Positions 4,706 through 23,076 are shown, counted from the stretch's first letter. The stretch: 32,000 nt of DNA from Erysipelotrichaceae bacterium (GCA_963663995.1 OY760660.1:1290001-1322000); one strand, 5' to 3'. The notes: generated from the letters alone by a model not told the origin. Translations and numbers: made by a program.

Positions 4706-7114
4706 ATGTCTAGAAAATTAAGCAAAAGAGAATCAGAAGTTTTGAATCATATTATTAAACATACTAGTAATACATTGAAGTCTAAGGACTTCAATTCTTT
4801 AGGTCTTAATGCTTATGATATGAGTCTTGATATAAATACCGATCGTGCTAATTTGTCGCGAACTTTAAATAATTTAACACGAGATGGTTTTTTAATTAAA
4901 TTATTAGGCAGGCCAACTTCTTTTATTTCTCGAAGGACAATTGAACAATTTTATCCTGATGTCTTTTTTCCAGAAATCTTGGATAAGAAAACGGATTTTA
5001 AAAAATTAGTAAACGATAGTAGAACGGTTATAGATCCAAGCACTGATCCTTTCTCAAACTTAATTGGTCATAATAAAAATGAAAGTTTAGGAGAAATTGT
5101 TTCACAGATTAAATCTTCAATTGATTATCCACCACATGGACTACCAATTATTCTTTATGGTGAAGCATTCACAGGAAAAAGGTTACTTGTTCAGTCCGCT
5201 ATTGATTATAGTGTTAAGCGGAAATTATTGAAGAATCAAAAACATGTTTATTGGATTGACTGTTTAAATTTAACGAATGAGAACGAATTATTCAATCTCA
5301 TTAATCGATTCGTACGTAATGATAAAGATTTCAAATTCTTAATCATCCAAGATTTTGACATACTCACTGAAGTCGCTCGTCAACGACTTAAATCCATAAT
5401 TATCAATCAAGCAATATATGATTACGAATCACAAAACATTCATCCACTCAACGCAAATCTTTTCTTAGTCACACAAAAAGATTTGGAATTTATTCATAAA
5501 TTCCATTTTGAACAAATCATCCCCACAATCGTAAAGATGCCTTCTTTTGATGATCGAAATTTAAAGGAAAAAATAACTTTCATTTTATCAATGTTTCAAA
5601 CAGAATCTCGAAATATTAATCGCAATATAAAAGTAACCCGCAATATAATAAATTGTTTTGCATTATCATCTTTCCCCGGAAATTTAGATCATTTAAAAAT
5701 TGAAATAAAAAACGCCATTTTAAATTATTTTGAAAGTCCAAGTAATGATAAGCCTACTATTGAACTTGATTTTGAACACTTATCTGATCAATTACTAAAT
5801 AGAATCACTAATGTAAATAATCAAATTCAAGAACTAGAAAATCTATATGAAGTTTTTAACATATCTCATGTTATCTTAAGTCCAAACGCTGATTGCGTAG
5901 AATTAAGACGATTGCAGCAGCAAGAATTATATTCTATTAACAATCAAATTAAAGTTATAAAAAGTAATCATGTGCCTGACGTACAGTCGCTGACTCAAAT
6001 TTGTAAGATATGTATCCAAGAGGCAGAAAACATTAAATTTGACACACTTAGATCAAAAACAATAAGTGAGCTTTATGATTTGATTACTGAGGATTTAGAG
6101 TCAACCGGGCTTACAAGTAATGATCACTTATACTATGGTTTACTCAATCATATTAACCATGTTGTTGAATCATTGAAATCAAAAAACTATCATTCAATCT
6201 ATCAAGATGACTTTCCATCTTCTGATATTATAATGATTGACTTAGCAGAAAAGATAAATCAAAAGTTAGAATCACACTTTAAAATCAACATACCTAGACA
6301 AGAGATTAGATATATTATTGTGTATTTATCTCTAGCAAAACAATTAGTAGATGATTGTAGAATCTCAATCCTCGTTATGTGCCGTTTATCAAGAGTGTCT
6401 GAGAGTTATACAAAGTTTATTAAAGCTTTGAACAATCAAATCAAATGCGAGAATTTTGAATATAACTTTTTTGACTTTGCCTTAAAAAAAGAATCTTTTA
6501 TAAATGCGCTCAAGGAAAAGATATATGAATTGAATTCTGGTAAAGGAGTTCTAATTGTCTCGGATGAATTAATTCCCAGTGACGTTGAAAAAACAATTCA
6601 CTCAATTAGTGAGAACTGTCTCTTAATTCCCAATATTACAATTTCTAAAATGGAGAAAATCGTTAGCACTTGTCAAAACAAACATAGTTTGATTGGTGAC
6701 TTCTTACCATATATTGAAGAATATACAGCTATAAATAGTGATAAAGACATCGAGAACTTTGATTTACTAGATTTAATCGAAAATGAACTGCTTGGAAAAT
6801 CGTTAACCTTTTTAAACCCACACAAAATTTCTGAACTTTCATTTGAGGTGCTAGCGAAAATTATAAAAGATCTTGATATCGCCTATAGTGATATACTTGC
6901 GATTCGTTTTGTATCTCATACATCATACATGTGTGAAAGAGTAATACGTGGCGATCAACTTGTACATAAAAAAATGAATGACTTTATCAATCAAAACGGT
7001 AAGTATCTACATATTATCGAGAATCATTTTTCATTAATAAACGATGCGTTTGGAATTATTATTCCACAAAGTGAACTAATTTATCTTACAGAATTATTCT
7101 TAGATTTTATGTAA
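4706..7114 (+). CDS. LevR-like PTS operon regulator: N-terminal wHTH, degenerate P-loop/AAA-like module, PRD domains and an EIIA-Man-like insert
   Basis: The start is moved to the ATG at 4706, which follows AAAGGGG; the track start at 4670 has no SD. The HTH is ANLSRTLNNLTRDGFLIKLLGRPTSF. The Walker A-like motif is YGEAFTGKR and the Walker B-like motif is FLIIQDFD. No GAFTGA loop lies between them. PRD-like segments include NHINHVVESL...RYIIVYLSLAKQ and, at the C-terminus, RFVSHTSYMCERVIRG...SELIYLTELF. Confidence 0.65.
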   Translation: MSRKLSKRESEVLNHIIKHTSNTLKSKDFNSLGLNAYDMSLDINTDRANLSRTLNNLTRDGFLIKLLGRPTSFISRRTIEQFYPDVFFPEILDKKTDFKKLVNDSRTVIDPSTDPFSNLIGHNKNESLGEIVSQIKSSIDYPPHGLPIILYGEAFTGKRLLVQSAIDYSVKRKLLKNQKHVYWIDCLNLTNENELFNLINRFVRNDKDFKFLIIQDFDILTEVARQRLKSIIINQAIYDYESQNIHPLNANLFLVTQKDLEFIHKFHFEQIIPTIVKMPSFDDRNLKEKITFILSMFQTESRNINRNIKVTRNIINCFALSSFPGNLDHLKIEIKNAILNYFESPSNDKPTIELDFEHLSDQLLNRITNVNNQIQELENLYEVFNISHVILSPNADCVELRRLQQQELYSINNQIKVIKSNHVPDVQSLTQICKICIQEAENIKFDTLRSKTISELYDLITEDLESTGLTSNDHLYYGLLNHINHVVESLKSKNYHSIYQDDFPSSDIIMIDLAEKINQKLESHFKINIPRQEIRYIIVYLSLAKQLVDDCRISILVMCRLSRVSESYTKFIKALNNQIKCENFEYNFFDFALKKESFINALKEKIYELNSGKGVLIVSDELIPSDVEKTIHSISENCLLIPNITISKMEKIVSTCQNKHSLIGDFLPYIEEYTAINSDKDIENFDLLDLIENELLGKSLTFLNPHKISELSFEVLAKIIKDLDIAYSDILAIRFVSHTSYMCERVIRGDQLVHKKMNDFINQNGKYLHIIENHFSLINDAFGIIIPQSELIYLTELFLDFM

Positions 7115-7263
7115 TATGATTTACTTTTTAAAGATATACAGTCCGTAAAAAAATTTAAAAAAACGTTAGATCATTGTATTTCAATTAAGTAAAAGTACAT
7201 AAAAGCATATTTGTTGTATCTAGTATTTTAAAGAATTAGTCTTATATGTAGGAGAATTAACTT

Positions 7264-7683
7264 ATGAAACTATGGAAATCTGCTTTTGCCTATTTATTGG
7301 CTGGACTATTCTTTGGATTATACTTTAGAGAAATCACTAAAATTTATATGTTTGATGGTGAGACAGTACTAACTAGTCTTCACACTCATGCCTTAGTCTT
7401 AGGAATGATGATGTCTTTGATTATGATTCTATTTGAAGGGGTCTATCAAGCAAGCAAAGAAAAAGGCTTTAATAAAGCCTGGATCATCTATCAAATAGGT
7501 GTATGGTGGTTACTTATCATGAACTTAGTACGAGGTACTGTTGAAGTCACAGGTAACAACATATCAACTGGATTAGATATGAGTATAGCTGGTATTGCTG
7601 GTTTATCACATGTCACCTTATCAATTGGATTAATATGGTTATTACTGGTTATTAAAAAATCAATCAGTCATAAATTAAGCTAG
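7264..7683 (+). CDS. DUF2871-like small integral membrane protein
   Basis: 139 aa with four predicted TM helices. The N-terminal pattern AFAYLLAGLFFGLYFREITK...LTSLHTHALVLGMM matches my memory of DUF2871. AGGAG lies upstream. Confidence 0.55.
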   Translation: MKLWKSAFAYLLAGLFFGLYFREITKIYMFDGETVLTSLHTHALVLGMMMSLIMILFEGVYQASKEKGFNKAWIIYQIGVWWLLIMNLVRGTVEVTGNNISTGLDMSIAGIAGLSHVTLSIGLIWLLLVIKKSISHKLS

Positions 7684-7698
7684 TCACAACATGCTTTG

Positions 7699-7729
7699 GA
7701 CTGCCAACATAATGTTTGCAGTCTTTTTT
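7699..7729 (+). terminator. Rho-independent terminator after the DUF2871 gene
   Basis: GACTGC (7699-7704) pairs with GCAGTC (7718-7723), followed by TTTTTT (7724-7729). Confidence 0.7.
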
Positions 7730-7875
7730 ATTATTTTGATAAATAAAAGGTATTAATATCCCTTAAAAATTGATTGCGACAATTCATCATTAAATAGTTT
7801 AATTTGAGGTCGACATAATTGTTGCACAGAACAATACATGTTGATATTTACTATATCTAGCTATCATATATGTTT

Positions 7876-7904
7876 AAAAAAGGAGGAAGCGACTAGCTTT
7901 CTCC
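7876..7904 (-). terminator. Rho-independent terminator after the lipoprotein gene
   Basis: The minus strand reads GGAGAAAGC-tagtc-GCTTCCTCC (8 of 9 bp paired) followed by TTTTTT (the A-run at 7876-7881 on the + strand). Confidence 0.6.
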
Positions 7905-7922
7905 CATTGTTTAATCAATAGA

Positions 7923-8804
7923 TTAATAGTGTATTTCGTAATACCCATCTTCATTGACTGTTTCTGAAACTTTAGTGTTTGAATTGAGATTAACAGCAGG
8001 TCTAACGCCAACACTATTGAAATCTGCAAAATCACTCGCAAAGAAGCCACTATCATAAACAACACCCTCTGTACGATAACCATAATCGACAGGTGATCGT
8101 GTCCAATATTCTTCACCATAGGACTGATCAGGAAAATTAGTGACTCTTAAATTATCTTCTGCGCCAATAAAATACTCCCATGTTCTTCCGATTTCGTATG
8201 TTGACTCATGCACAGTATCACCAAGCTCTGTATTTGAAGGAATAAAGACTAGATCATCACTCGTATAACTTGTCATCAAATCAAAATCGTAATTGTCTAA
8301 TGTAGTCATCAGAAGTGCATTTTTGAAATTATCTGAAAAAACAGAATAGAACCCGGTGCCCTCATGGGGAGTTGTTGAATTTAGCCAAGGTCTTAATCCA
8401 ACTGGAGAAGTTGAACCACTATTCCCCCAATGATTTCGTCCAGCTAACAAACCAGAATCGATAGTACTCTCATCATAACTAAAGTAAGCTATGAGTTTTT
8501 CACTTAATAAAGTCACACCACTGCCGTAATGATCTTTTGCGACCACAATCCATGTCACACTTTGGGTCACATTAGCGTCAAAATCAGTGTAGCCAAATCC
8601 TCTTTTAAAAGTCCATTCCCAACTAGGATCAACCACTTTATCCCCAATCGATAATGAACTTAACAATTTATCGCTTGAAGAAGTTTCATTTGATGATTCA
8701 TTGCTTTCTGTCTCAAGGGAATTAGAGTTTGAGGTGCAAGCACTAAACATCATCGATAATAAAATAAACAACAGATATGATTTTTTAAGAAATGCTTTTT
8801 TCAT
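7923..8804 (-). CDS. Secreted lipoprotein, possibly DUF6273-like
   Basis: The start is set at the ATG at 8804, which follows AAGGAGA. The signal peptide plus lipobox-like sequence is MKKAFLKKSYLLFILLSMMFSAC, followed by a Ser/Asn-rich linker. The C-terminal YWTRSP...SVGVRPAVNL motif resembles DUF6273 from memory. Confidence 0.6.
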   Translation of the reverse strand: MKKAFLKKSYLLFILLSMMFSACTSNSNSLETESNESSNETSSSDKLLSSLSIGDKVVDPSWEWTFKRGFGYTDFDANVTQSVTWIVVAKDHYGSGVTLLSEKLIAYFSYDESTIDSGLLAGRNHWGNSGSTSPVGLRPWLNSTTPHEGTGFYSVFSDNFKNALLMTTLDNYDFDLMTSYTSDDLVFIPSNTELGDTVHESTYEIGRTWEYFIGAEDNLRVTNFPDQSYGEEYWTRSPVDYGYRTEGVVYDSGFFASDFADFNSVGVRPAVNLNSNTKVSETVNEDGYYEIHY

Positions 8805-9123
8805 TATTACAAATCTCCTTTTAATCACATATTAGCATAGAAAAAGTAGTGCCAAAAAAGTTGAATTACAAAAGTTAAAACTTATTAAAAAATAAAGTTT
8901 AATAAGCATATTTATAGCTATTTTTAAGGAACTAAAAAACAATTAATGTATTAAAATTTACTAAGTAATAAGATTTAAATAAAGAAAACAGTGCTTTATT
9001 TAAGACATATATTAGACTTGAGCTTTGCTGGGATTGTAATATTAGTTTAGGAATTAATTTTGTCTTTTTACTCATCGTTAATAAGCAATCATTAAATAAG
9101 ACTTATACGAGTATAATTGATGT

Positions 9124-9237
9124 ATGAGTTTAAGTCATCGTTTGTTTAACACAACAATAAAGAAGTTTTTTAATAAAAAGATTTATTTAAAAGAAGCTTA
9201 TTCAAATCATTCTTTTAAGATGCCTTTAGCATTCATT
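9124..9237 (+). pseudogene. 5' fragment of an alpha/beta-hydrolase (HSL-type esterase) gene separated from its body by IS insertions
   Basis: The open frame MSLSHRLFNTTIKKFFNKKIYLKEAYSNHSFKMPLAFI runs straight into the IS junction. It is in frame with the 3' fragment once the 8-bp duplication CATTCATT (9230-9237 and 12044-12051) is collapsed. Confidence 0.6.
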
Positions 9238-9242
9238 GGTAG

Positions 9243-10699
9243 GGGCGTGCGGACATAAAGTTGGACAAAGAGGAGAAATATGCCAACTTATTCAAAACAA
9301 CAAGTTAAAATAGCTTTAGAACTTTATAGAGAAGAAAGAAGCGCAACACAAGTCGTGAGGAAATTAGGTTATCCCACAAAAGCTACTATTTACCTTTGGT
9401 TAAGTCGTGAAAAAACAAACTCTAATAATCAGATTAAAAATACAGACTCTTATTCATATCTAAAACGGAAAACGATTTCACCAGAACTTAAAATAAAAAT
9501 CATTAAACGATGTTTTGAGGATGGGGAAGATGTTAGATATGTGGCAGAGGAGATGGGAGTTAGTCGACAAAGCATTCATAATTGGCGTAGAATAATTGAA
9601 ACCAAAGGATTAATTGGACTAATGAATAAAGATAAGCAGAAGATTATCAAACCAAATCTCACAGAAAACAAAGAAATAAAACAAGCGAATACAGAAGAAA
9701 TCAATTCACTTTTAAATGAAATCAAATCATTAAAAATGGAAGTAGATCTTCTTAAAGAGGCATTAGATTTAATAAAAAAAGATAAAGGCATTGGTTATCT
9801 AAAACTAAAAAATAGTGAAAAAATCCAGTTAATCAATGCCTTAAAAAAAGAATATCCATTGAAAGATTTACTAGAACGATTGAACATTCCAAAAAGTTCA
9901 TATCATTATCATCTAAAGAAATTAAAAAGTCGTGATAAGTATGAAAATTTGTGTTTAAAAATAAAAGAAATTTATGAATTAAACCGTTGTGTATATGGTT
10001 ATCGAAGAATAAAGATTAGTCTAAACAATCAAGGAGTCATTGTTTCTGAGAAGGTTATACGTCGTCTTATGAAACAGATGGAACTAAACCCAAAGTACAA
10101 AAAGAAAACAAGAAAGTATAGCTCATATCAGGGTGAAATATCAGAAGCTCCAGACAACATTATTAATCGAGATTTCAAATCTGATTATCCAAATCAAAAA
10201 TGGCTCACAGATATAACTGAATTCGCGTTATCAAATGAAAAAGTATACCTCTCTTCAATCGTTGACTGTTTTGATGGGAAGATTATTTCTTGGAATACGA
10301 GCACTCGTCCTGACGCACAACTAGCTAATGAATCACTAATAGATGCATGTAAGACATTAAAGAAGTCTGATAATGTGATACTTCATTCTGATCGTGGTGG
10401 ACACTATCGATGGAGTAACTGGATAAATATCACCAAAGAACACAATATTATTCGATCTATGTCTAAGAAAGGTTGTACGGGTGATAACGCTGCTTGCGAA
10501 GGTGTATTTGGTCATATAAAAAATGAATGTTTTTATGGATTAGATTTTAGAGATTTTAACGCCGAAGAATTTATTGAATATTTAAATAATTATCTAGTGT
10601 GGTTTAATGAAACTAGAATTAAAATAAAATTTGCATGTAGTATTAATGAAAATCGACAAAAATACGGTTATTAAAGTCCAACTTTATGTCCGCACGCCC
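9243..10699 (+). mobile_element. IS3-family (IS150-group) insertion sequence, 1457 bp
   Basis: Perfect 24-bp terminal inverted repeats GGGCGTGCGGACATAAAGTTGGAC lie at 9243-9266 and, reverse-complemented, at 10676-10699. They are flanked by a 3-bp direct repeat TAG (9240-9242 and 10700-10702). The element encodes an HTH + rve (DDE) transposase. Confidence 0.9.
9280..10674 (+). CDS. IS150-group transposase, OrfA-OrfB encoded as one continuous frame
   Basis: 464 aa. It has N-terminal HTH modules, a leucine-zipper-like KSLKMEVDLLKEALDL, and a DDE core: WLTDITEF, HSDRGGHY, DNAACEGVFGHIKNE. An A7 run at 9774-9780 sits where IS150/IS911 carry their frameshift motif. Confidence 0.9.
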   Translation: MPTYSKQQVKIALELYREERSATQVVRKLGYPTKATIYLWLSREKTNSNNQIKNTDSYSYLKRKTISPELKIKIIKRCFEDGEDVRYVAEEMGVSRQSIHNWRRIIETKGLIGLMNKDKQKIIKPNLTENKEIKQANTEEINSLLNEIKSLKMEVDLLKEALDLIKKDKGIGYLKLKNSEKIQLINALKKEYPLKDLLERLNIPKSSYHYHLKKLKSRDKYENLCLKIKEIYELNRCVYGYRRIKISLNNQGVIVSEKVIRRLMKQMELNPKYKKKTRKYSSYQGEISEAPDNIINRDFKSDYPNQKWLTDITEFALSNEKVYLSSIVDCFDGKIISWNTSTRPDAQLANESLIDACKTLKKSDNVILHSDRGGHYRWSNWINITKEHNIIRSMSKKGCTGDNAACEGVFGHIKNECFYGLDFRDFNAEEFIEYLNNYLVWFNETRIKIKFACSINENRQKYGY

Positions 10700-16709: not shown

Positions 16710-17435
16710 TTACATTTTCCTATATTGTTTATATCTTCCTTCTTTTCCAATAACTTCAATGCGACTGAGTGTGACTAAAACATTGAGACACATTTGTGCT
16801 TTCTTAGGACTAATCTTTAAATCTTTCGATAATGATTGTGAAGTGATTATTTCAGTTTTTATTCCTTCAAGTAAACAATCAAAGTCTTCTGTATTATTAA
16901 TCTTTATGGTTTTCACATACTCTGTTGGTTGTCGATCAGCTCTATGTGATCCTTTTTTTTTATCCGTACTCCAACCATTTAGATAACGTGTTTCAAGTAA
17001 ATTAAAAAAGACCAAATGAATACTTAAATTAGGATGATCTAAGTATTGTTTAATCGAATACAATTCACTAATACTATCGATTGCTTTGCCTAGCTTTGGT
17101 GACTTGCGTGCTTTAGATACTTCACCTGTATCTATGTTTATCCAACTTAAATGTTTGATATAAGGAATGGGATAGACAATTGTTGTGGGAGTATCTTCTA
17201 AAAAGACATCTAGCTTTGATTTAAGTTTAAAAAACTGACGTGTTTGTATTTCAATGATTTGTTTTCCATCATAAATATCACAGACTTTGTTTTTAAACTT
17301 AACCTCATGAAAATCTTCATTGGGTTCAATGAAGTATTTAATAAAAGAGTGAAGTGTTTTCTCACTTAAAGTCCCAATCCCATTTTGGGCTTGGTTTTTA
17401 TACACTTTATCTAATGTTTCTTTAAAAACATCCAT
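16710..17435 (-). CDS. Conserved hypothetical protein, possible PD-(D/E)xK / CoiA-like nuclease fold
   Basis: 241 aa. GTLSEKTLHSFIKYF...CDIYDGKQIIEIQTRQFFKLKSKL...IVYPIP resembles a widespread uncharacterised family with a D...EIQT core, recalled from memory only. The C-terminus looks wHTH-like. Confidence 0.35.
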   Translation of the reverse strand: MDVFKETLDKVYKNQAQNGIGTLSEKTLHSFIKYFIEPNEDFHEVKFKNKVCDIYDGKQIIEIQTRQFFKLKSKLDVFLEDTPTTIVYPIPYIKHLSWINIDTGEVSKARKSPKLGKAIDSISELYSIKQYLDHPNLSIHLVFFNLLETRYLNGWSTDKKKGSHRADRQPTEYVKTIKINNTEDFDCLLEGIKTEIITSQSLSKDLKISPKKAQMCLNVLVTLSRIEVIGKEGRYKQYRKM

Positions 17436-17456
17436 AGATTAATAATAGAACATCTC

Positions 17457-18224
17457 TTAAGTTCTATCTAAGTTTTGTTGAAATTGTTGATGATTGTTTA
17501 AAATCGCATTTGCTCTTTCAACATCTTGTTTAGTCCCTAAGCCTTTAGTTAACAGTTGTGCTAATTCAAGTGCATGGACATGATAGCCTTTCATATATGC
17601 ATTATTTAAGAAATGATAAGCTTTATCATAGTCTTGTTTTACCCCATATCCCTTGTAATACATAAAGCCTAACTGACTAATGGCTGGAATATATTGACGC
17701 ATTGCTGACATAAAAAAGTATTCAAAAGCTTTCTTATCATTTTGAATGACATAAGTACCCTCACGATAAAACTTCGCTAAATCATATTGTGCAATTCTGA
17801 AATTTTGATCAGCAGCTTTTTTAAGAAAATAGATTTGTGTATTCATTATTGGCCAAGGATAATCTATATTAGCTAATTCATAACAACTCTTAGCGTCACC
17901 TGCCATTGCCTTAAAAAAGCAATCATTGATTGTTTGTCTTTTTTCTTCATTATGTTTAAAAAGTTCATCTTCACTATAAACTCTATTGAATTGTTCTAAT
18001 AAGACTTTTTTAAATGTTTGAACAAAGTCAGTTAAATGTAAGTATGGATATTTCTTAAGATAGTCATCATATAGACTAAGAGCTTGGTAAAAGAAACGTA
18101 CATCAATGAGTGTATATAAAAATTGCACTACTTCATCAACACTCGGTGTGATTGGATCAATCTCTTTGTGTGCAGCAAGAACAGCCTTTAGTTCAATATC
18201 AATAATTCTTTTATTTTCAATCAT
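17457..18224 (-). CDS. Sel1-like (TPR-type) repeat protein
   Basis: The start is set at the ATG at 18224, which follows AGAGGAGAT and overlaps the upstream stop by 8 nt. Repeats of the form AQYDLAKFYREG.., SQLGFMYYKGYGVKQDYDKAYHFL, ELAQLLTKGLGTKQDVERA are typical Sel1 units. Confidence 0.7.
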   Translation of the reverse strand: MIENKRIIDIELKAVLAAHKEIDPITPSVDEVVQFLYTLIDVRFFYQALSLYDDYLKKYPYLHLTDFVQTFKKVLLEQFNRVYSEDELFKHNEEKRQTINDCFFKAMAGDAKSCYELANIDYPWPIMNTQIYFLKKAADQNFRIAQYDLAKFYREGTYVIQNDKKAFEYFFMSAMRQYIPAISQLGFMYYKGYGVKQDYDKAYHFLNNAYMKGYHVHALELAQLLTKGLGTKQDVERANAILNNHQQFQQNLDRT

Positions 18225-19068
18225 GCTTTTGATCTCCTCTTGTTTCTTCATTGATGATGGTGATTTTAAATTCATCACTTGTTTTAATGTGATGAGCATG
18301 TTCACCTAAGCCTTTAACTTGAACTTGGTAAAGAATCGTTTTCCCAGAATAATTTTTAATTTGTTCATCTAACCAAGTTTGAAGTTCTTTAGAAGCTTTC
18401 CCATAAAAAGGATAGTGATCTACCAAAATTATCACATTAACAATCTCTTCATCCTTCATACAGATTAAGCTTGGAAACTCATTGATACTAAGTTTGGTGT
18501 AATTAACAAAGTACTCCTTTTTAAAGTACTTAAGTGCAATCTCTTGACGAACTTCTTCATGCAGCATGGCATGTGTCATATAGCCATAATCAGGTAATAG
18601 TACATAGTGATATAACATGTCATTACACAAATCGATTTGTTTGATTTGATTGTCTTTATTAAAGTCCACAAGGATTAATACATAGTCAGGATCATAGTAA
18701 GAATCCGCTATACGTATAACCACTCGCCCTTCTGCATACCACTGGACAATTCGCATCCCTTCAATGTCTTCATTTTTTGCTTTAGAGTTTTTAGATGCGA
18801 CAACATTTTGACGTGTAAAACCTACTGGTTGATTGTTGATATATTTCAAAACAGCTAACTCACTAATATGGTGTGAGTTTTCCCTAAACTGCTCTTCTTT
18901 CTTTTGAAAGTATGCAAGCATATTTTCTTTACCTTCAATATCTGACATATCCCACATACTTGTGCGTTTTATTTCATCCGCTAAATAAGGAATGACTTCT
19001 TTAAAGGATCCACAGTTATAAGCCTCTTTTAATGTCTGCATAATTTTTAGTTGTTGATCAATCATCAC
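18217..19068 (-). CDS. Hypothetical protein; the N-terminal half looks NTF2/SnoaL-like
   Basis: 283 aa with no recognisable catalytic motif. The N-terminal ~140 aa have an alpha+beta cone-like pattern (KEAYNCGSFKEVIPYLADEI...). It is translationally coupled to the Sel1 gene. Confidence 0.3.
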   Translation of the reverse strand: MMIDQQLKIMQTLKEAYNCGSFKEVIPYLADEIKRTSMWDMSDIEGKENMLAYFQKKEEQFRENSHHISELAVLKYINNQPVGFTRQNVVASKNSKAKNEDIEGMRIVQWYAEGRVVIRIADSYYDPDYVLILVDFNKDNQIKQIDLCNDMLYHYVLLPDYGYMTHAMLHEEVRQEIALKYFKKEYFVNYTKLSINEFPSLICMKDEEIVNVIILVDHYPFYGKASKELQTWLDEQIKNYSGKTILYQVQVKGLGEHAHHIKTSDEFKITIINEETRGDQKHD

Positions 19069-19316
19069 TTCACCTCTTGTGTCCTTAGTTTAGTTTTTAA
19101 GTGATAACTCAGGGTTAATTGTGAATTGACTTATATGATTATTCCTTAAGGGATATCACTTTAAGTAAATGGGTAGTGTAGATGATTTATGTTGAGCCTT
19201 GGGTTCAAAAAAATGTTTAATACGTTAGATGAAAATTTCTGAACATTTCTTTAGTATTTTTGTACATGCTTTGTTATACTAGTTCGGTATGGCTAAAATG
19301 CCTCAATGGAGAACAT

Positions 19317-19865
19317 ATGACAGAGAAGAAAATAGCTAATCCAGGTCCTTTAGGCTTGTTAGGCTTCGGGATGACAACCATCCTACTAAACTTACATAAC
19401 GCAGGGATTATTCCACTATCAATTGTGATTATCTCAATGGGTATTGCTTTAGGTGGTTTAGCACAACTTATTGCAGGAATATTAGAATTTAAAAACGGTA
19501 ATACTTTTGCTGGTACTGCCTTTACAGCTTATGGAGCATTTTGGTGGTCTTTAGTTGCGATATGGATGTTAGCACCAGAAGGTTTAGCTGCTGATTCTAT
19601 ATCTATGGGTTATTACTTAGGGATTTGGGGAATCTTTACAGGGTTCATGTTTATTGGAACCCTCACTCACAACAAGGCTACTCAAGTTGTATTCTTGTCA
19701 TTAACCGTATTATTCATATTATTAGCCATTGGCGATTTCACAGGTTCAAGTTTAATTAAAACGATCGCTGGATTTGAAGGTATCTTCTGTGGTGCTTCAG
19801 CTTTCTATAGTGCTGTTGGTCAAATTGTGAACGGCGAACATAACAAAACAATCTTCCCTCTTTAA
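19317..19865 (+). CDS. GPR1/FUN34/YaaH (SatP)-family acetate/succinate channel
   Basis: The start is set at the ATG at 19317, which follows GGAG. MTEKKIANPGPLGLLGFGMTTILLNLHNAG carries the family signature NPxPLGLxGF. Six TM helices. Confidence 0.85.
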   Translation: MTEKKIANPGPLGLLGFGMTTILLNLHNAGIIPLSIVIISMGIALGGLAQLIAGILEFKNGNTFAGTAFTAYGAFWWSLVAIWMLAPEGLAADSISMGYYLGIWGIFTGFMFIGTLTHNKATQVVFLSLTVLFILLAIGDFTGSSLIKTIAGFEGIFCGASAFYSAVGQIVNGEHNKTIFPL

Positions 19866-20003: not shown

Positions 20004-20645
20004 CTAATGTTTACCGTTTCGATTTTTAAAGTCTTCCTCTATTTCCTTTTTCCACTCATCAAAAACTTCTTCATCTTTTCTTAATCGAGAGACACTGTTA
20101 TTTAATACTTGGTAGTTCAGTTTTACACCTTTTTTATCATTATGAAAGCTGACTGCTCGATCAGCTTTTATCCCCATATCTTCTGCTGTAGAAATCGCAT
20201 CAATATTTGCTCCTAAGAAGATAAACTCCCAGCCTAATTCTTCTTGAGCTTTTATCAAATTCTTGATATCAAATACATTAAATTGTTGAGATGCATTCTC
20301 CATTCCATCAGTTGTAATAATCACTATCACTTTATCTGCTTTAAAATCCTTCGCTGTACTTTCCTGAATTCCTTTTAGTTTATTAATGCCATATCCGATC
20401 GCATCATAGAGGGCTGTTGATCCTCTTACTATATAATCGCTACGATTCATCTTATTAACAACTTTTAAATCTAAATGATCATGTAGTGTTTTTATCTCAT
20501 GATCAAAGAGAATGGTTGTTAGATTAACATCTCCTTCTTCCTTTAATTGTTCATCAATAAAACCATTAAAACCACCAATCGTATCACTTTCAAGACCTGC
20601 CATAGAACCACTTCTATCTAATATAAATACAAGTTCTGTTTTCAT
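20004..20645 (-). CDS. Cytoplasmic von Willebrand factor A (vWA) domain protein
   Basis: MKTELVFILDRSGSMAG carries the MIDAS DxSxS motif. TTDGMEN is also present. There is no signal peptide. AAGGAGG lies upstream. Confidence 0.85.
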   Translation of the reverse strand: MKTELVFILDRSGSMAGLESDTIGGFNGFIDEQLKEEGDVNLTTILFDHEIKTLHDHLDLKVVNKMNRSDYIVRGSTALYDAIGYGINKLKGIQESTAKDFKADKVIVIITTDGMENASQQFNVFDIKNLIKAQEELGWEFIFLGANIDAISTAEDMGIKADRAVSFHNDKKGVKLNYQVLNNSVSRLRKDEEVFDEWKKEIEEDFKNRNGKH

Positions 20646-20797
20646 CGTTTGACCTCCTTAGTCACTCAAAGTTTAATCAAATAGGAACATAAAAAGGTCA
20701 ATTCAAAATTGACTTATTAAATCTTAAAATATTAGGAAAACAAGATTATTCGGAGTAAAATAAAGGTAGAGAAACACCTAGTGTGTTCCTTCGGTTG

Positions 20798-20847
20798 AAA
20801 AAAACACTCTACTCTTGGGAAAATTTGAGAAAGAGTGTTTTTGTTTT
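20798..20847. terminator. Bidirectional intrinsic terminator hairpin downstream of the small peptide ORF
   Basis: AACACTCTACTC (20803-20814) pairs with GAGAAAGAGTGTT (20827-20839). An A7 run lies on one side (20798-20804) and TTTTTGTTTT on the other. Confidence 0.7.
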
Positions 20848-20849
20848 GT

Positions 20850-20936
20850 TTACTTATGTCTTTTAAGATAAAAGATGGCGTAAATCAATTCAAAGATAGA
20901 TACGATTAAAATCATAGCTTGTATGAAATCACTCAT
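20850..20936 (-). CDS. 28-aa hydrophobic peptide, candidate type I toxin / holin-like toxin (not in the supplied ORF track)
   Basis: The ATG at 20936 lies 8 nt after GGAGG of GGAGGTGAT (20949-20941). The stop is TAA at 20852-20850. The translation is MSDFIQAMILIVSIFELIYAIFYLKRHK: a single TM helix plus a basic tail. It is followed directly by a strong terminator. Confidence 0.55.
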   Translation of the reverse strand: MSDFIQAMILIVSIFELIYAIFYLKRHK

Positions 20937-21027: not shown

Positions 21028-21990
21028 TTAAAGTGAATTAGAACCTAAAAGTGTTTGATCATACTCATAAAGAACTGCATTTAGTTCAAATAGATCATAG
21101 TTTTTCTTCTTAATAAAATATTGCACAATTATGTCTTGTTTAGAGTACGGGCTAAAACTAAAGCCTGCTTTGTTTAATAAATTATGTGACTCAATTTGTG
21201 TTAATTTAAGGGCAATGCAGAAAGCTAAGGCCGTTGATTTAGATGGAACATAGTTTTTATTTGATCTAATCTTAGAAAAGACAGCTTTAGATACATTTGC
21301 TTTTTTATATGTTTCAACCTCGTTTAAATTTTTCTCATCAATGTATTTAAACAGTTGTTGAGAGAAGGAAATGTCATGTTGATTAATAACATCTTCTAAT
21401 TCATTATACTGAATCAAACGATCAATCTTTGGCAACAAGAAATCTACATCTTCAATTTCTAAGTTATCTGTCAAATAATCTTTCACTGAATGCGATAGTT
21501 TTTGACTTAATTCAAAAACAGATTTATCAAAGACAACTAAGAACACTTTAACTTCATGATGCATGATAAAAGCCTGAATTTCACTTAACGCAATGCTTAA
21601 AGCTTCATCTTTTGGCCAGGCATAGGTACCAGCTGATAAGAGTGGAAAAGCAATCGATGTTAAATGATTCTCAAGCACACGTTTAAAAGCATTTCGATAG
21701 GATTGTCTTAATAATTCTTTCTCATCATGCGCACCATCCGTCCACATGGGATTTGCGACATGAATAATATATTTAGATGCTAAGTTAAATGCTGGGGTAA
21801 TCACAGCTTCTCCCCAGTTAATACGCCCAAAAGGAATACAAGATTCATTCAATTGTTCGTAACCTGCCGCTTTATAAATTTTCCCAGATACAGACAAGAG
21901 ATCCCCAGGGATTAGATAAGGATTTGATGGATTCACAATCGCATCAACATTTAACTTAGTTATGTCTTCTCTAATGATATCTAGATACAT
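21028..21990 (-). CDS. Macro domain (ADP-ribose binding/hydrolase) protein fused to a C-terminal XRE-like HTH domain
   Basis: Macro motifs: DAIVNPSNPYL (NxxN), SIAFPLLSAGTYAWPKDEA (the GxYGYP-type phosphate loop), YIIHVANPMW. The C-terminus ETYKKANVSKAVFSKIRSNKNYVPSKSTALAFCIALKL is an HTH. Confidence 0.8.
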   Translation of the reverse strand: MYLDIIREDITKLNVDAIVNPSNPYLIPGDLLSVSGKIYKAAGYEQLNESCIPFGRINWGEAVITPAFNLASKYIIHVANPMWTDGAHDEKELLRQSYRNAFKRVLENHLTSIAFPLLSAGTYAWPKDEALSIALSEIQAFIMHHEVKVFLVVFDKSVFELSQKLSHSVKDYLTDNLEIEDVDFLLPKIDRLIQYNELEDVINQHDISFSQQLFKYIDEKNLNEVETYKKANVSKAVFSKIRSNKNYVPSKSTALAFCIALKLTQIESHNLLNKAGFSFSPYSKQDIIVQYFIKKKNYDLFELNAVLYEYDQTLLGSNSL

Positions 21991-22002
21991 TGATCTTTCC
22001 CC

Positions 22003-22479
22003 TTATTTTATTCCATGTTTTAGATAACCCCAATAACCCATCGAATAATTTGCTGGAGCTATATAGAACATAGAAATATCTTTTATAAATAAAACATTTG
22101 AACAACTAACACACTTTAAATGATAAACCTGAAAAAGCTTATTTAATGATTGAAGTTCTAGAAAAGTTTTTTCACTTTCATTTATTGAACAGATCTTTGT
22201 CATCTCAGGGTTTGTAAAAAGATAGATGAACATATAAAGAGGACGTGAATTAGATTCACTTCCTAGGTAGTGTATGCTAATAAGTTCAAATGTTTGATTT
22301 AATGTCTCTTTTTCGAATTCACAATCAATAAAGACCATATTGTGAAACCTAAAACCATCAAGTGAGTGGTATACAAATATTTGTGTTTGCTTAATAACAA
22401 TGTTTTTTAAGTTTTCTTGTAGTTTAATATTTTGTTCATAATTCTCTTTTTTAATGTAAATGCCTAGGGTAAAAGTCAT
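22003..22479 (-). CDS. Hypothetical protein (158 aa), middle gene of the Macro-HTH operon
   Basis: The ORF overlaps the upstream gene by ATGA (22476-22479). I recognise no motif. Confidence 0.5.
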   Translation of the reverse strand: MTFTLGIYIKKENYEQNIKLQENLKNIVIKQTQIFVYHSLDGFRFHNMVFIDCEFEKETLNQTFELISIHYLGSESNSRPLYMFIYLFTNPEMTKICSINESEKTFLELQSLNKLFQVYHLKCVSCSNVLFIKDISMFYIAPANYSMGYWGYLKHGIK

Positions 22480-22862
22480 ATGTGTTGATTCACTTCTTTG
22501 TCTCTTTTAATACATTCTTCTTCACTCAATGGTTTAGCTTTTGTGTAATACAAGAAATACAACAAGATATGTCGATAAACGTATTTAAAGTTAATAAAAT
22601 TAGTATCGTTAATGGTATAGCCACTTCGATCTTTATAAAGGAATCCTTCTAAAGTTAAAGCACTTATAAATGATTCAGCTTGATCATGATTGTTTAGGTT
22701 AAACAAAACATCTTTATAGCGACACCAGCCATAATTACGATTGTAAATAAAGTACGCTAAAGGAATTCCTCCATATTCAATCTTTCCATTTACTTTTGGG
22801 TAATCTCTAAAAATACAGCGATCTTGATTCTCTTCCTGATTAAAATTCAATTGTTTTTGCAT
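22476..22862 (-). CDS. Hypothetical protein (128 aa), first gene of the Macro-HTH operon; possible wHTH segment
   Basis: A strong AAGGAGG SD precedes it. AESFISALTLEGFLYKDRSGYTINDT resembles a winged-helix recognition helix plus wing, which is weak evidence. Confidence 0.5.
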   Translation of the reverse strand: MQKQLNFNQEENQDRCIFRDYPKVNGKIEYGGIPLAYFIYNRNYGWCRYKDVLFNLNNHDQAESFISALTLEGFLYKDRSGYTINDTNFINFKYVYRHILLYFLYYTKAKPLSEEECIKRDKEVNQHI

Positions 22863-23048
22863 ATAGCCTCCTTAAACAAAAAACACCTAAAGGTGTCTCT
22901 TGTTTAAATGAAGTTCACCTATCATTTAAGGTTTTAGCACCTTGACCATTGGTTAGGTTGCTGTAAGCTACGAGCCTTATCTCTAACTCACTCTTAATAG
23001 GATGTTTAATGTATTTATATTATAAAAACTGAATAGGTATTATGTAAA
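22863..23048 (-). promoter_or_regulatory. Promoter plus ~150-nt structured 5' leader (candidate riboswitch or attenuator) of the Macro-HTH operon
   Basis: On the minus strand: TTTACA (23048-23043), an 18-nt spacer, then TATAAT (23024-23019). The leader contains CCTATTAAG (23001-22993), which can pair with CTTAA-atg-ATAGG (22930-22918). It has an internal hairpin GCAACCT..AGGTGC (22961-22937) and an alternative TTAAATG/CATTTAA hairpin (22929-22923 and 22910-22904). AGGTG (22920-16) is complementary to the terminator arm CACCT (22895-91). Confidence 0.45.
22874..22905 (-). terminator. Leader-embedded intrinsic terminator immediately upstream of the SD
   Basis: The minus strand reads AAACAAGAGACACC-TTTA-GGTGTTTTTTGTTT. 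The stem is up to 14 bp including G-U pairs and is T-rich on its 3' side. It is followed by AAGGAGGctatATG. Confidence 0.6.
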
Positions 23049-23076
23049 GTTAACTGTCCCTAATATGCACAGTTAG

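Follow-up and report, generated by a model that had tools for sequence, protein, structure and literature searches.

We favour, with moderate confidence, the interpretation that three adjacent minus-strand genes of an Erysipelotrichaceae bacterium form a SAM-starvation-induced operon, in which riboswitch control has been imposed on a regulator that would sense ADP-ribose and belongs to a conflict-type module. The operon lies within a 32,000-nucleotide stretch of DNA that was analysed as a whole (hereafter the window). It consists of g1 (22862..22476, minus strand; 128 aa), the first member of an orphan family; g2 (22479..22003, minus strand; 158 aa), an orphan protein coupled to g1 via an ATGA overlap; and g3 (21990..21028, minus strand; 320 aa), in which a Macro domain is followed by a linker and a probable C-terminal Cro/C1-type helix-turn-helix (HTH) domain.

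The tight packing described in the original prediction was seen again when the sequence was read: all three open reading frames (ORFs) are present, g1 and g2 overlap at 22476-22479, and a gap of 12 nt (21991-22002) separates g2 from g3. A Shine-Dalgarno-like sequence lies 5' of each gene. Co-occurrence of the trio across genomes, the check that had been proposed at the time, bears out the operon, as g1, g2, and g3 are syntenic in four independent loci (the window, L001, L003, and L004). Translational coupling of g2 with g3 is retained in three loci, the stop and start codons overlapping or abutting in L003 and L004. An APH-family kinase gene is additionally inserted in the L001 operon, which is therefore plastic.

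The operon, the orphan status of its two small proteins, and the odd loop 1 of its Macro domain are supported, whereas the DarTG-like toxin-antitoxin model attached to them is not. Moreover, a promoter, a SAM-I riboswitch, and a terminator lie immediately 5' of g1 (23048..22867) and had been overlooked, and a nearby gene for a vWA protein, taken at the time as mere context, is the conserved partner of the g3 family.

The leader and its SAM-I riboswitch

A strong predicted sigma-70-type promoter (TTTACA-18 nt-TATAAT; 23019..23048, minus strand), with 11 of 12 consensus matches and a -10 box that is aligned across four close loci, would drive a leader composed of a SAM-I (S-box) aptamer and then a terminator hairpin predicted also to sequester the g1 Shine-Dalgarno sequence, followed by g1, g2, and g3. 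The aptamer (22914..23004, minus strand; Rfam RF00162) has helices P1-P3 and a pseudoknot between the P2 loop and J3-4. In a local search of the 331-nt leader at permissive thresholds, it scored 43.2 bits (E=8e-9), which is 1.2 bits under the RF00162 gathering score of 44.4 bits, and an Rfam scan of the whole window at gathering thresholds returned no match. Homologous leaders in nine other loci scored 45.6-65.1 bits against the same model (among them L001, 45.6; L002, 65.1; L004, 51.4; L009, 58.9; L011, 61.6; L012, 56.6; L013, 53.9; and L014, 59.5), and a custom covariance model, R1, gave the window aptamer 89.7 bits.

Helices P1, P2, and P3 covary, with 96.8% of cells paired and seven pairs carrying compensatory changes, as against 32-37% of cells and at most two compensatory pairs in partner-slid controls; none of 500 shuffles matched the observed covariation score. 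The invariant motifs AGAG, GAGA, CAGCAACC, GGTGCT, and GAT.GG are found in the leaders, and the pseudoknot pairing AAGG/CCUU of the window, L001, and L004 becomes CAGG/CCUG in L002, a change that is compensatory by inspection. P4 is essentially missing in eight of the ten leaders (those of the window, L001, L004, L009, L012, L013, L014, and L069), where its position is taken by 1-3 nt versus 17-19 in the model; only L002 and L011 have it. The window aptamer is also 2 nt shorter at the K-turn 3' strand position. A search of the literature on P4-less SAM-I aptamers found no direct precedent.

The hairpin that follows the aptamer (22867..22913, minus strand) has the core AAACAAGAGACACC-UUUA-GGUGUUUUUUGUUU, with a U-run within and after it; pairing at its base also takes in part of the g1 Shine-Dalgarno sequence AAGGAGG. 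Leader folding yields -48 kcal/mol (z=-5.6). The terminator arms CACC...GGUGUUUUUUGUUU show no variation among the four close loci, and GGUG in the 3' strand of P1 and CACC in the 5' arm of the terminator are likewise invariant. An antiterminator, in which GAUAGGUG of the P1 3' strand pairs with CACCUGU, reaches -10 to -15 kcal/mol in L002 and L004 and is weaker in the window. The hairpin at 22913..22867 would thus serve as an intrinsic terminator that cannot form together with the antiterminator. SAM binding, termination, and co-transcription of the three genes are predicted for this locus. SAM-I riboswitches turn genes on as SAM falls. By the known S-box mechanism, high SAM would keep P1 closed and let the terminator form, halting transcription before g1, and low SAM would free the P1 3' strand to pair with the 5' arm of the terminator, resulting in read-through.

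Just 5' of the -35 box lies an imperfect dyad, AACTGT-N11-ACAGTT (23052..23074, minus strand), that is a candidate operator. The conserved GGACA element inside it (23059..23055, minus strand) keeps a constant distance from the aptamer (-54 to -57) in six of nine independent g1 loci, the remote L011 and L013 among them, and clean GGACA dyads are present in L001 (TGTCC-N8-GGACA) and in L011. Elsewhere in the window, TGTCC-N8-GGACA occurs at chance level (8 versus 6.2 expected).

The g1 and g2 protein families

A SAM-I riboswitch precedes the g1-family gene in nine of nine independent loci for which upstream sequence is available, including relatives with a protein identity as low as about 25%. 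Judged from sequence and context, g1 represents, as founding member, a family of small proteins that is undescribed and is marked by S-box control. Both small genes are real and conserved. The comparison included six close relatives of g1, at 52-62% identity with 45 invariant alignment columns, and three relatives of g2, at 37-53% with 48. Only four close g1 relatives were present among 5.8 billion clusters, about eight remote ones emerged from an exhaustive search of 1.84 billion representatives, and g1 was found in one of 185,579 species genomes, an Erysipelotrichaceae metagenome-assembled genome. Alignment searches of metagenome and viral collections with g1, and of the viral collection with g2, returned no relatives. 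The occurrence of g2 is limited to the four trio loci, of an Erysipelotrichaceae-type lineage, and we regard it as a lineage-specific partner of g1.

In agreement with the earlier reading, searches of Pfam, NCBIfam, PADLOC, PHROGs, and PDB sequences, with single sequences and with profiles, gave nothing significant for either protein. Several weak matches were set aside as noise: GAD-like (E=0.003, in two of seven members), HTH_45 (E=0.1), NleB (E=0.17), LytA repeats (E=0.4), the PRPF40 FF domain (E=0.02), and coronavirus spike (E=0.2). The fold search that had been suggested could be carried through for g1, the AF2 model of which (pLDDT 78, pTM 0.72) had no Foldseek match under E=0.7 in PDB and BFVD, and not for g2, the AF2 model of which is unusable (pLDDT 48). 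A GIY-YIG-like reading of the g1 residues ‘FIY...YKG...NL’ was rejected, as the spacing to the catalytic Glu is wrong and Foldseek gave no GIY-YIG match. Likewise rejected as relatives were P0131 (2,562 aa), whose nine matching stretches are a false positive due to ankyrin repeats, and both the gene overlapping the g1 relative of L014 and a 109-aa ORF of L069, which are unrelated to g1 and g2 (hhalign probability <1%).

The gene g1 is often a single-gene unit. Its relatives in L002, L009, L011, and L012 have neither g2 nor an adjacent Macro gene, and most relatives lie in unremarkable metabolic neighbourhoods. Our working guess is that g1 takes part in the response to SAM starvation as a small regulatory or DNA-binding protein; its two grounds are the conserved upstream dyad and some very weak winged-helix-like matches.

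The Macro-HTH protein

In the assignment of g3 as a fusion of Macro and HTH domains, the Macro part is upheld and the HTH part is probable. Pfam PF01661 covers residues 19-134 (E=9e-28), and the N-terminal 165 residues best match proteins of the YmdB/MacroD types (DR_2288 and YmdB in PDB, E~1e-27). The HTH is weak in g3 alone (HTH_26, E=0.15 at full length and 0.033 for the C-terminal domain, below the gathering score; no match among PDB sequences) and is supported at the family level, HTH_26 being recognised in 10 of 13 relatives (best E=1e-4) and HTH_19 in 3 of 13. Source annotations label g3 relatives ‘Xre family’; no database record of the exact g3 sequence was found.

Both strings quoted earlier for g3, SIAFPLLSAGTYAWP and PGDLLSVSG, are present, and loop 1 of the Macro domain is indeed non-canonical. 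It reads NPSN...PGDLLSVSGKIY, a degenerate form: the YmdB sequence GG--GVDGAIH aligns with PGDLLSVSGKIY, Asp being replaced by Ser and His by Tyr, with a two-residue insertion, and the pattern used for the MacroD catalytic loop 1 (N-x6-GG[VLI]D-x3-H) is absent from g3. The two NxxN Asn residues and the Tyr of loop 2 are kept. Because the catalytic Asp and His are lost, the Macro domain of the window is most likely a binder or sensor. The sensor role is proposed by analogy, and about 29% of the family retain a canonical catalytic loop 1, next to about 3% with the g3 type and 40% with GGVCGAIF.

The sub-clade linked to g1 and g2 has in common a loop 1 of the form NPSN...PGDxxSVSG, with the two-residue insertion, and in the window loop 2 is GTYA where G[VI]YG is usual. 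Such remodelling of the diphosphate-binding loop 1 might mean that the domain has been retuned to SAH, MTA, or 5'-deoxyadenosine, g3 being then a second, protein-based layer of SAM-cycle control; the inferred co-transcription of g3 with an S-box gene and the presence of the APH-family small-molecule kinase in the L001 operon would be in keeping with this. The same loop type, however, is found in P0014 (L005), within a defence island that contains no g1, g2, or riboswitch, and the vWA partner is kept. As we also know of no macro domain that binds SAM-cycle metabolites, we consider this purely speculative reading extremely improbable.

A conserved Macro-HTH and vWA module

The Macro-HTH family comprises 5,862 matches at E<=1e-10, distributed over Bacillota chromosomes, prophages, plasmids, and defence islands, an association with mobile and defence loci that agrees with the accessory-like surroundings noted from the start. 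Among 98 loci with at least 1.5 kb of downstream sequence, 92 have a vWA gene downstream of the Macro-HTH gene (48 of 53 from metagenomes and 44 of 45 from viruses), encoding homologues 42-54% identical and on the same strand in 91 of the 92. The vWA protein of the window (20004..20645, minus strand; 213 aa) has the MIDAS sequence DRSGS and matches Pfam VWA (E=2e-6) and phrog_7371 (E=4e-54). Homologues are also present in L004, L006/L007, L015, L016, and L017; no vWA gene is near in L001 and L005.

An ADP-ribosylglycohydrolase gene (ADP_ribosyl_GH) accompanies the Macro-HTH gene in 33 of 140 further loci, and none was found in the window or L004. Among the 22 most frequent neighbour clusters of the 140 loci, none looked like an ADP-ribosyltransferase. 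The module is located in defence islands beside type I restriction-modification and type IV restriction genes and also on prophages. A search of PADLOC-DB v2.0.0 gave no match for g1, g3, the vWA protein, or a 283-aa protein, and only a chance-level DpdD match for g2 (E=0.011); the literature on Macro-HTH or vWA systems offered no direct precedent. Macro-HTH and the small vWA protein constitute a near-obligate two-gene module, undescribed in the libraries and literature searched and without a PADLOC model.

Between g3 and the vWA gene of the window lies an ORF for a 28-aa hydrophobic, type I toxin-like peptide (MSDFIQAMILIVSIFELIYAIFYLKRHK; 20850..20936, minus strand), which is in the same position in L004, has no Pfam match, and was not found in other Macro-HTH/vWA gaps. 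After it, a terminator-like hairpin (AACACTCT...AGAGTGTTTTTTT; approximately 20795..20841, minus strand) was read from the sequence. Because this ORF and hairpin intervene, the vWA gene of the window is probably transcribed on its own. A simple terminator scan did not list the hairpin.

In the SAM-starvation-induced operon that we propose, g3 would be the regulator half of the Macro-HTH and vWA module rather than an antitoxin, ADP-ribosylglycohydrolase being a frequent third component. By analogy with NrtR-type Nudix-HTH proteins and with ARG-centric systems (Iyer, Burroughs, Anantharaman, and Aravind 2022; PMC9503650), the Macro domain would sense free or conjugated ADP-ribose and, in some relatives, may also remove ADP-ribose; the HTH would set transcription of the module, and the vWA protein would bind modified target proteins. 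Fusion of an S-box/g1/g2 cassette upstream, in the Erysipelotrichaceae lineage, would then have gated Macro-HTH production by SAM as well.

The toxin-antitoxin interpretation

The original prediction leads to a model of the trio as a candidate DarTG-like toxin-antitoxin or abortive-infection system, g1 or g2 being a new toxin, possibly an ADP-ribosylating one, and the Macro-HTH protein an autoregulating antitoxin that reverses the modification. Macro domains do act as antitoxins in DarTG, and the tight operon conserved in four loci, the absence of recognised folds in g1 and g2, and the location of the Macro-HTH family in defence islands would all suit such a system. The wider survey does not support the claim, however, as g1 and g2 are present in 0 of the 140 further Macro-HTH loci, where vWA is the constant partner. 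Relatives of g1 are found alone, without g2 or Macro, and g1 occurring alone and always with an S-box is more in keeping with a gene under metabolite control than with a toxin that needs a cognate antitoxin. In addition, the libraries searched gave no ADP-ribosyltransferase (ART), DarT, or nuclease signal and no PADLOC match, the Macro domain is without its catalytic Asp and His, the putative antitoxin is last in gene order, which is atypical, and toxin-antitoxin operons under a metabolite riboswitch are, to our knowledge, without example. We therefore consider a toxin-antitoxin role very unlikely.

Joining of the S-box unit and the Macro-HTH module

An S-box, with or without g1, appears joined to Macro-HTH in three gene arrangements: the trio; L013, where the Macro gene is divergent from the riboswitch and a g1 relative; and L069, where the order is riboswitch, the unrelated 109-aa ORF, Macro-HTH, and vWA. 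The fusion could be incidental, as an S-box was found at only 1 of the 140 sampled Macro-HTH loci. In that case, g1 (with or without g2) would serve methionine/SAM homeostasis, for example by regulating it, by acting as chaperone to a SAM-dependent enzyme, or by sparing sulfur, and Macro-HTH/vWA would be functionally unrelated and merely downstream. The constant S-box control of g1 and its frequent occurrence as a single-gene unit point in this direction, as do the overwhelming absence of g1 and S-box from the Macro-HTH family and the plasticity of the L001 operon. Conversely, g2-g3 translational coupling is kept in three loci, g1-Macro adjacency reappears in the remote L013 in another orientation, the S-box of L069 precedes Macro-HTH without g1, and chance adjacency would be expected in about 1 of 1000 loci (a rough estimate that supposes genomes of a few thousand genes with about one Macro-HTH gene each). 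On these grounds, we hold an incidental fusion to be possible and rather doubtful.

Phages use SAM lyases against restriction-modification and BREX. A phage lyase that lowers SAM could thereby de-repress g1, g2, and Macro-HTH/vWA as a back-up defence, the riboswitch acting as a sensor of infection or stress and so as a guard against SAM depletion. Such a role would fit the recurrent tie of the S-box to g1 or the Macro-HTH module, the neighbouring restriction genes in defence islands, the prophage locations, and the direction in which SAM-I riboswitches switch. Plain methionine limitation, however, would set off the same response, g1 and g2 show no sign of being effectors, g1 relatives are mostly found in metabolic surroundings, the S-box is nearly always absent from Macro-HTH loci, and no literature tying SAM riboswitches to phage defence was found. 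We regard this guard as unlikely.

The SAM-gated regulator that we favour has implications beyond the window. The g1 family is a new S-box-regulon family, for which no precedent was found in the libraries and literature searched, and riboswitch-controlled genes without assigned function have often led to new biology of the sensed metabolite. The Macro-HTH/vWA pair, often with ADP-ribosylglycohydrolase, occurs abundantly among Bacillota, in gut phages, and in defence islands and is a candidate host or phage system for sensing or reversing ADP-ribosylation. At least three joinings of an S-box/g1 unit with the Macro-HTH module suggest that SAM status is tied to ADP-ribose-based conflict systems. 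If the guard against SAM depletion were true, the locus would be the first immune module guarded by a riboswitch, and a new S-box-regulon protein family would gain a function; if the fusion is incidental, the outcome is a useful correction, an apparent new toxin-antitoxin system becoming a riboswitch-controlled operon.

Comparison with known systems

With the SAM-I (S-box) attenuators of Bacillota (RF00162), the leader shares the core AGAG, GAGA, CAGCAACC, GGUGCUAA, and GAUAGG, helices P1-P3, the P2-loop/J3-4 pseudoknot, the terminator/antiterminator platform, OFF logic, and a position as an operon 5' leader. It departs from them in the prevalent loss of P4, in the sub-threshold score of the window, and in its targets, which are an orphan family and a Macro-HTH regulator in place of methionine/cysteine biosynthesis, transport, or salvage genes. 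Like DarTG, the trio includes a macro-domain protein in a small operon and is related to phage-defence contexts; unlike DarTG, it has no DarT (DUF4433) or other ART beside g3 (Pfam, NCBIfam, and PADLOC), the g3 Macro domain is MacroD/YmdB-like rather than DarG/TARG1-like and is devoid of the catalytic residues, and the partner genes are not co-conserved. The resemblance of g3 to Escherichia coli YmdB and the MacroD O-acetyl-ADP-ribose deacetylases lies in its N-terminal sequence, the NxxN Asn pair, and the loop-2 Tyr, whereas PGDLLSVSGKIY replaces GGGVDGAIH, g3 carries an additional, probable HTH domain of about 120 aa at its C-terminus, and all g3 scores are far under the NCBIfam equivalog cut-offs for YmdB/MacroD types. 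NrtR, a Nudix-HTH ADP-ribose-responsive repressor, has the same one-component design, an impaired ADP-ribose-binding enzyme fold joined to a DNA-binding domain; in g3, the sensor fold is macro instead of Nudix, the HTH is of a different type, and the ligand and operator role are predicted.

A parallel in overall architecture is found in the ARG-centric systems, which are predicted to counter viral ADP-ribosylation (PMC9503650, section 3.8). Shared with the Macro-HTH module are an ADP-ribose-binding or -processing domain that has no cognate ADP-ribosyltransferase alongside it, a one-component regulator combining an HTH with an ADPr-type sensor, a gene for a vWA ‘chaperone’, accessory nucleases that vary, and conflict-type neighbourhoods. 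The Macro-HTH/vWA pair itself is not covered in that work, and both sets of systems are predictions. In the present module, the fusion partner of the HTH is macro, where the ARG-centric systems have Nudix or WYL; Macro-HTH with vWA, rather than ARG, makes up the constant core, an ARG gene being absent from the window; and the hosts are Bacillota and phages, whereas the ARG-centric systems are those of actinobacteria, planctomycetes, and proteobacteria.

Operon architecture

The three genes of the operon are present as the original prediction had placed them, all on the minus strand: g1 (22862..22476, 128 aa), g2 (22479..22003, 158 aa), and g3 (21990..21028, 320 aa, Macro domain and HTH). The ATGA stop/start overlap between g1 and g2 (22476-22479) and the 12-nt gap between g2 and g3 are readable in the sequence, a Shine-Dalgarno-like sequence precedes each gene, and the ABC-permease gene upstream of the operon closes with its own terminator. 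Equally borne out was the lack of known motifs in g1 and g2, for which searches of Pfam, NCBIfam, PADLOC, PHROGs, and PDB gave no significant match. The predicted Macro domain of g3 is matched in Pfam (E=9e-28), the nearest NCBIfam group being YmdB/PRK00431, far under the equivalog cut-offs. The XRE-type HTH holds at the family level, the window protein alone being matched weakly (HTH_26, E=0.15); since HTH_26 matches ten of 13 Macro-HTH family members (best E=1e-4) and HTH_19 three of the 13, the fusion call is reasonable. The HTH-containing half of g3 (residues 175-312; 21028-21465) also matches phrog_4031 (E=9e-9), an uncharacterised phage protein profile of 626 positions, of which the match covers the last 140; this domain thus appears to be a mobile module that is also joined to other N-terminal domains.

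SAM-I riboswitch leader

What the original prediction overlooked is a riboswitch upstream of g1. Reading along the minus strand, one first meets a promoter close to consensus (TTTACA-18-TATAAT, 23048..23019), then a SAM-I (S-box) aptamer (about 23004..22914), and finally a long hairpin with a U-run (22913..22867), the base of which also pairs with part of the g1 Shine-Dalgarno sequence. The aptamer (E=8e-9 in a local Rfam search) scores 43.2 bits, just below the Rfam gathering score for SAM-I (44.4), and the leader has a folding energy of -48 kcal/mol (z=-5.6). The same leader stands before every g1 relative having upstream sequence, scoring 45.6 bits in L001, 65.1 in L002, 51.4 in L004, 58.9 in L009, 61.6 in L011, 56.6 in L012, 53.9 in L013, and 59.5 in L014 (L-numbers denote other loci with relatives of g1, g2, or the Macro-HTH gene). 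Across an alignment of ten aptamers, 96.8% of cells are paired versus 32-37% with partners slid, compensatory changes occur in seven pairs versus at most two, and the P2-loop/J3-4 pseudoknot covaries (AAGG/CCUU versus CAGG/CCUG). Close loci show no variation in the terminator arms or in the GGUG of the P1 3' strand, and clear antiterminators are present in L002 and L004. Judged from these sequences, the leader has the make-up of a standard SAM-OFF transcription attenuator, and S-box control of the operon is very probable.

The riboswitch class itself is already known. The P4 helix is missing, replaced by 1-3 nt, in eight of ten SAM-I aptamers before g1-family or Macro-HTH genes (the window, L001, L004, L009, L012, L013, L014, and L069), with P1-P3 and the pseudoknot kept; the window and L001 aptamers are also 2 nt shorter where the K-turn 3' strand would be. 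No publication on natural P4-less SAM-I aptamers was found in the literature searched, and the dominance of this form among g1/Macro-HTH leaders appears undescribed in the resources searched.

At a fixed offset, 2-6 nt upstream of the -35 box, GGACA occurs in six of nine independent g1 loci, two remote ones among them, and is absent in L069, a locus without g1. In many cases it forms the 3' half of a dyad, TGTCC-N8-GGACA (window 23052-23074, minus strand; L001 about 7783-7800; L011 about 2900-2920), which hints at a candidate operator for a regulator acting alongside the riboswitch, possibly g1 itself.

The g1 and g2 families

The g1 gene is extremely rare. Its close relatives number four among 5.8 billion clusters; the gene is present in one of 185,579 species genomes (Erysipelotrichaceae MAG OY781039.1), and scans of JGI metagenomes and IMG/VR returned none. 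When 1.84 billion representatives were searched exhaustively with a profile, eight remote relatives (134-161 aa) came to light, together with one ankyrin-repeat false positive. Invariant in the family are N8, R42, N43, G45, and N55-L56-N57. The genes that follow the remote relatives vary (a convergent glycoside hydrolase, a GGACT-family gene, DUF1801, or none), leaving the riboswitch and g1 as the sole constant among these loci, and the g1 family appears not to have been described as riboswitch cargo in the resources searched. For g1, AF2 gave a usable model (pLDDT 78, pTM 0.72), which has no match in PDB or BFVD; the model of g2, a gene restricted to the window, L001, L003, and L004, is unusable. 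Our guess is that g1 and g2 act as a pair of small regulators in the response to SAM starvation. In L001 (8872-9627), an APH-family small-molecule kinase of 251 aa (PF01636, E=1e-17), weakly similar to type II homoserine kinase and APH(3'), lies between g2 and the Macro-HTH gene, its start codon abutting the g2 stop codon.

The Macro-HTH family and its vWA partner

The Macro-HTH family is large, with 5,862 matches to g3 at E<=1e-10, including Bacillus, Paenibacillus, and Clostridium proteins; query coverage is 98-100% in the best 120 of these. Distant members reside in defence islands: the one in Paenibacillus validus is flanked by type I R-M genes and GmrSD, and that of L005 adjoins a PvuRts1I/SRA nuclease and a DUF3427 helicase. 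Others are found on plasmids and in one gut phage. The P. validus island (L006/L007) also holds RES-domain genes downstream and, about 6 kb upstream of the Macro-HTH gene, a gene running off the locus (1-214) that encodes an 806-aa fusion of an ADP-ribosylglycohydrolase and an HsdM-like methyltransferase of the type I R-M kind.

We sampled the neighbourhoods of 80 metagenome and 60 IMG/VR Macro-HTH loci. Of the loci with at least 1.5 kb of downstream sequence, 48 of 53 from metagenomes and 44 of 45 viral ones carried a homologue of the window vWA gene, which encodes a small von-Willebrand-A-type protein; it shared the strand of the Macro-HTH gene in 91 of these 92. In 55 of 100 pairs, the two genes were spaced by <250 nt. 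The window vWA protein itself matches phrog_7371 (E=4e-54). Clustering of neighbouring ORFs placed an ADP-ribosylglycohydrolase (ARH; PF03747, E=2e-36) in 33 loci, alongside mobile-element genes (integrase, ImmA/IrrE with XRE, and Y-family polymerase). These counts identify the Macro-HTH and vWA genes as the conserved unit, which ARH frequently joins as third gene; the pairing appears to be new to the resources searched.

The original prediction had read the operon as a toxin-antitoxin or defence module, with g1 or g2 as possible toxin and the Macro-HTH protein as antitoxin. The toxin-antitoxin idea falls because g1 and g2 occur in none of the 140 sampled Macro-HTH loci and vWA is the regular partner; such a model is probably wrong. 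Its DarTG-like form has a Macro domain to point to, and nothing resembling an ADP-ribosyltransferase was seen among the 22 most frequent neighbour clusters; we regard it as very improbable.

Macro active site

Alignment of g3 with YmdB shows both Asn residues of NxxN and the loop-2 Tyr to be kept. Loop 1 is non-canonical, as had been noticed: PGDLLSVSGKIY stands where YmdB has GG-GVDGAIH, with Ser in place of Asp (YmdB D35), Tyr in place of His (YmdB H39), and two extra residues. In a census of 247 family members, the canonical Asp is kept in about 29%, and the His in 67 of 209 sequences with a parsable loop 1. About 40% have GGVCGAIF (relatives P0040, P0064, P0085, and P0105 among them), in which Cys replaces the catalytic Asp; the change is conserved, which sets it apart from random decay, and could point to another chemistry or to redox sensitivity of the site. 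The window's loop-1 type is found in about 3%, including all g1/g2-linked copies and P0014, a relative in a defence island. From these residues, the window macro domain would more probably serve as a binder or sensor than as a MacroD-type hydrolase. That it has been retuned towards a SAM-cycle metabolite would suit the g1/g2-linked copies, less so P0014, and we hold it to be highly improbable.

Region downstream of g3

The vWA gene (20004-20645, minus strand) lies 382 nt downstream of g3 and probably has its own promoter. The gap holds a lineage-specific 28-aa hydrophobic peptide ORF (MSDFIQAMILIVSIFELIYAIFYLKRHK; 20850-20936, minus strand) with its own Shine-Dalgarno sequence, flanked by complementary segments (GTGTTCCTTC upstream and GAAGGAACAC downstream) and followed by a terminator-like hairpin. 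The peptide looks like a type I toxin; its ORF is kept at the same position in L004 (9081-9167) and absent in other Macro-HTH/vWA gaps. Past the vWA gene, and separated from it by an opposite-strand GPR1/FUN34/YaaH-family gene (19260-19865), are genes for an orphan 283-aa protein and a Sel1-repeat protein (16710-19068, minus strand), whose order is shared with L004 (10113-11731; 52% and 32% identity).

The S-box/Macro-HTH association

Three observations count in favour of a real link between the S-box cassette and the Macro-HTH gene: translational coupling of g2 and g3 is retained in three loci; L013 has a remote g1 relative with riboswitch, divergent beside a Macro gene; and L069 combines a SAM-I riboswitch (54.9 bits), an unrelated 109-aa ORF, Macro-HTH, and vWA. 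Against it count the single S-box, that of L069, detected by covariance model in 1.42 Mb of Macro-HTH loci and the several g1 relatives without a nearby Macro gene. We conclude that the association is recurrent, not obligatory; an incidental fusion of parts with unrelated functions, to which the latter two observations would be congenial, is unlikely. In L069 (metagenome; 5710-10047), the vWA gene is followed by a DpnI_C/T5orf172 protein and by 123-aa and 323-aa ORFs with motifs that are HIT-like and HNH-like by eye, and the 109-aa ORF is weakly DUF1292-like; this compact island could be used as a second model system.

Alongside the operon anatomy, conservation, and associations observed, we infer a ligand, DNA binding, targets, and a biological role for the Macro-HTH module. 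At high SAM, the aptamer would be closed, the terminator formed, and the operon unexpressed; at low SAM, read-through would allow g1, g2, and the Macro-HTH protein to be made, the last of which would bind an ADP-ribose-type ligand and DNA and regulate the module, including the vWA gene. Such a SAM-gated operon with a Macro-HTH regulator of a vWA-containing module is, on balance, the explanation that we favour. A guard that senses SAM depletion in phage defence would share the SAM gating and agree with the defence-island members, and the rarity of S-boxes at Macro-HTH loci tells against it; we think it quite unlikely. What the locus brings to light is a new S-box-regulon family together with a candidate ADP-ribose conflict module of wide distribution, and the link between them is open to direct testing.

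Comparison with known systems

Iyer et al. proposed host systems that counter viral ADP-ribosylation (PMC9503650); in their template (section 3.8), a domain that processes ADPr is combined with a sensor-HTH regulator and a vWA chaperone, and a cognate transferase is lacking. Although the Macro-HTH/vWA pair itself is not described in that work, the Macro-HTH/vWA unit, often joined by ARH, fits this template.
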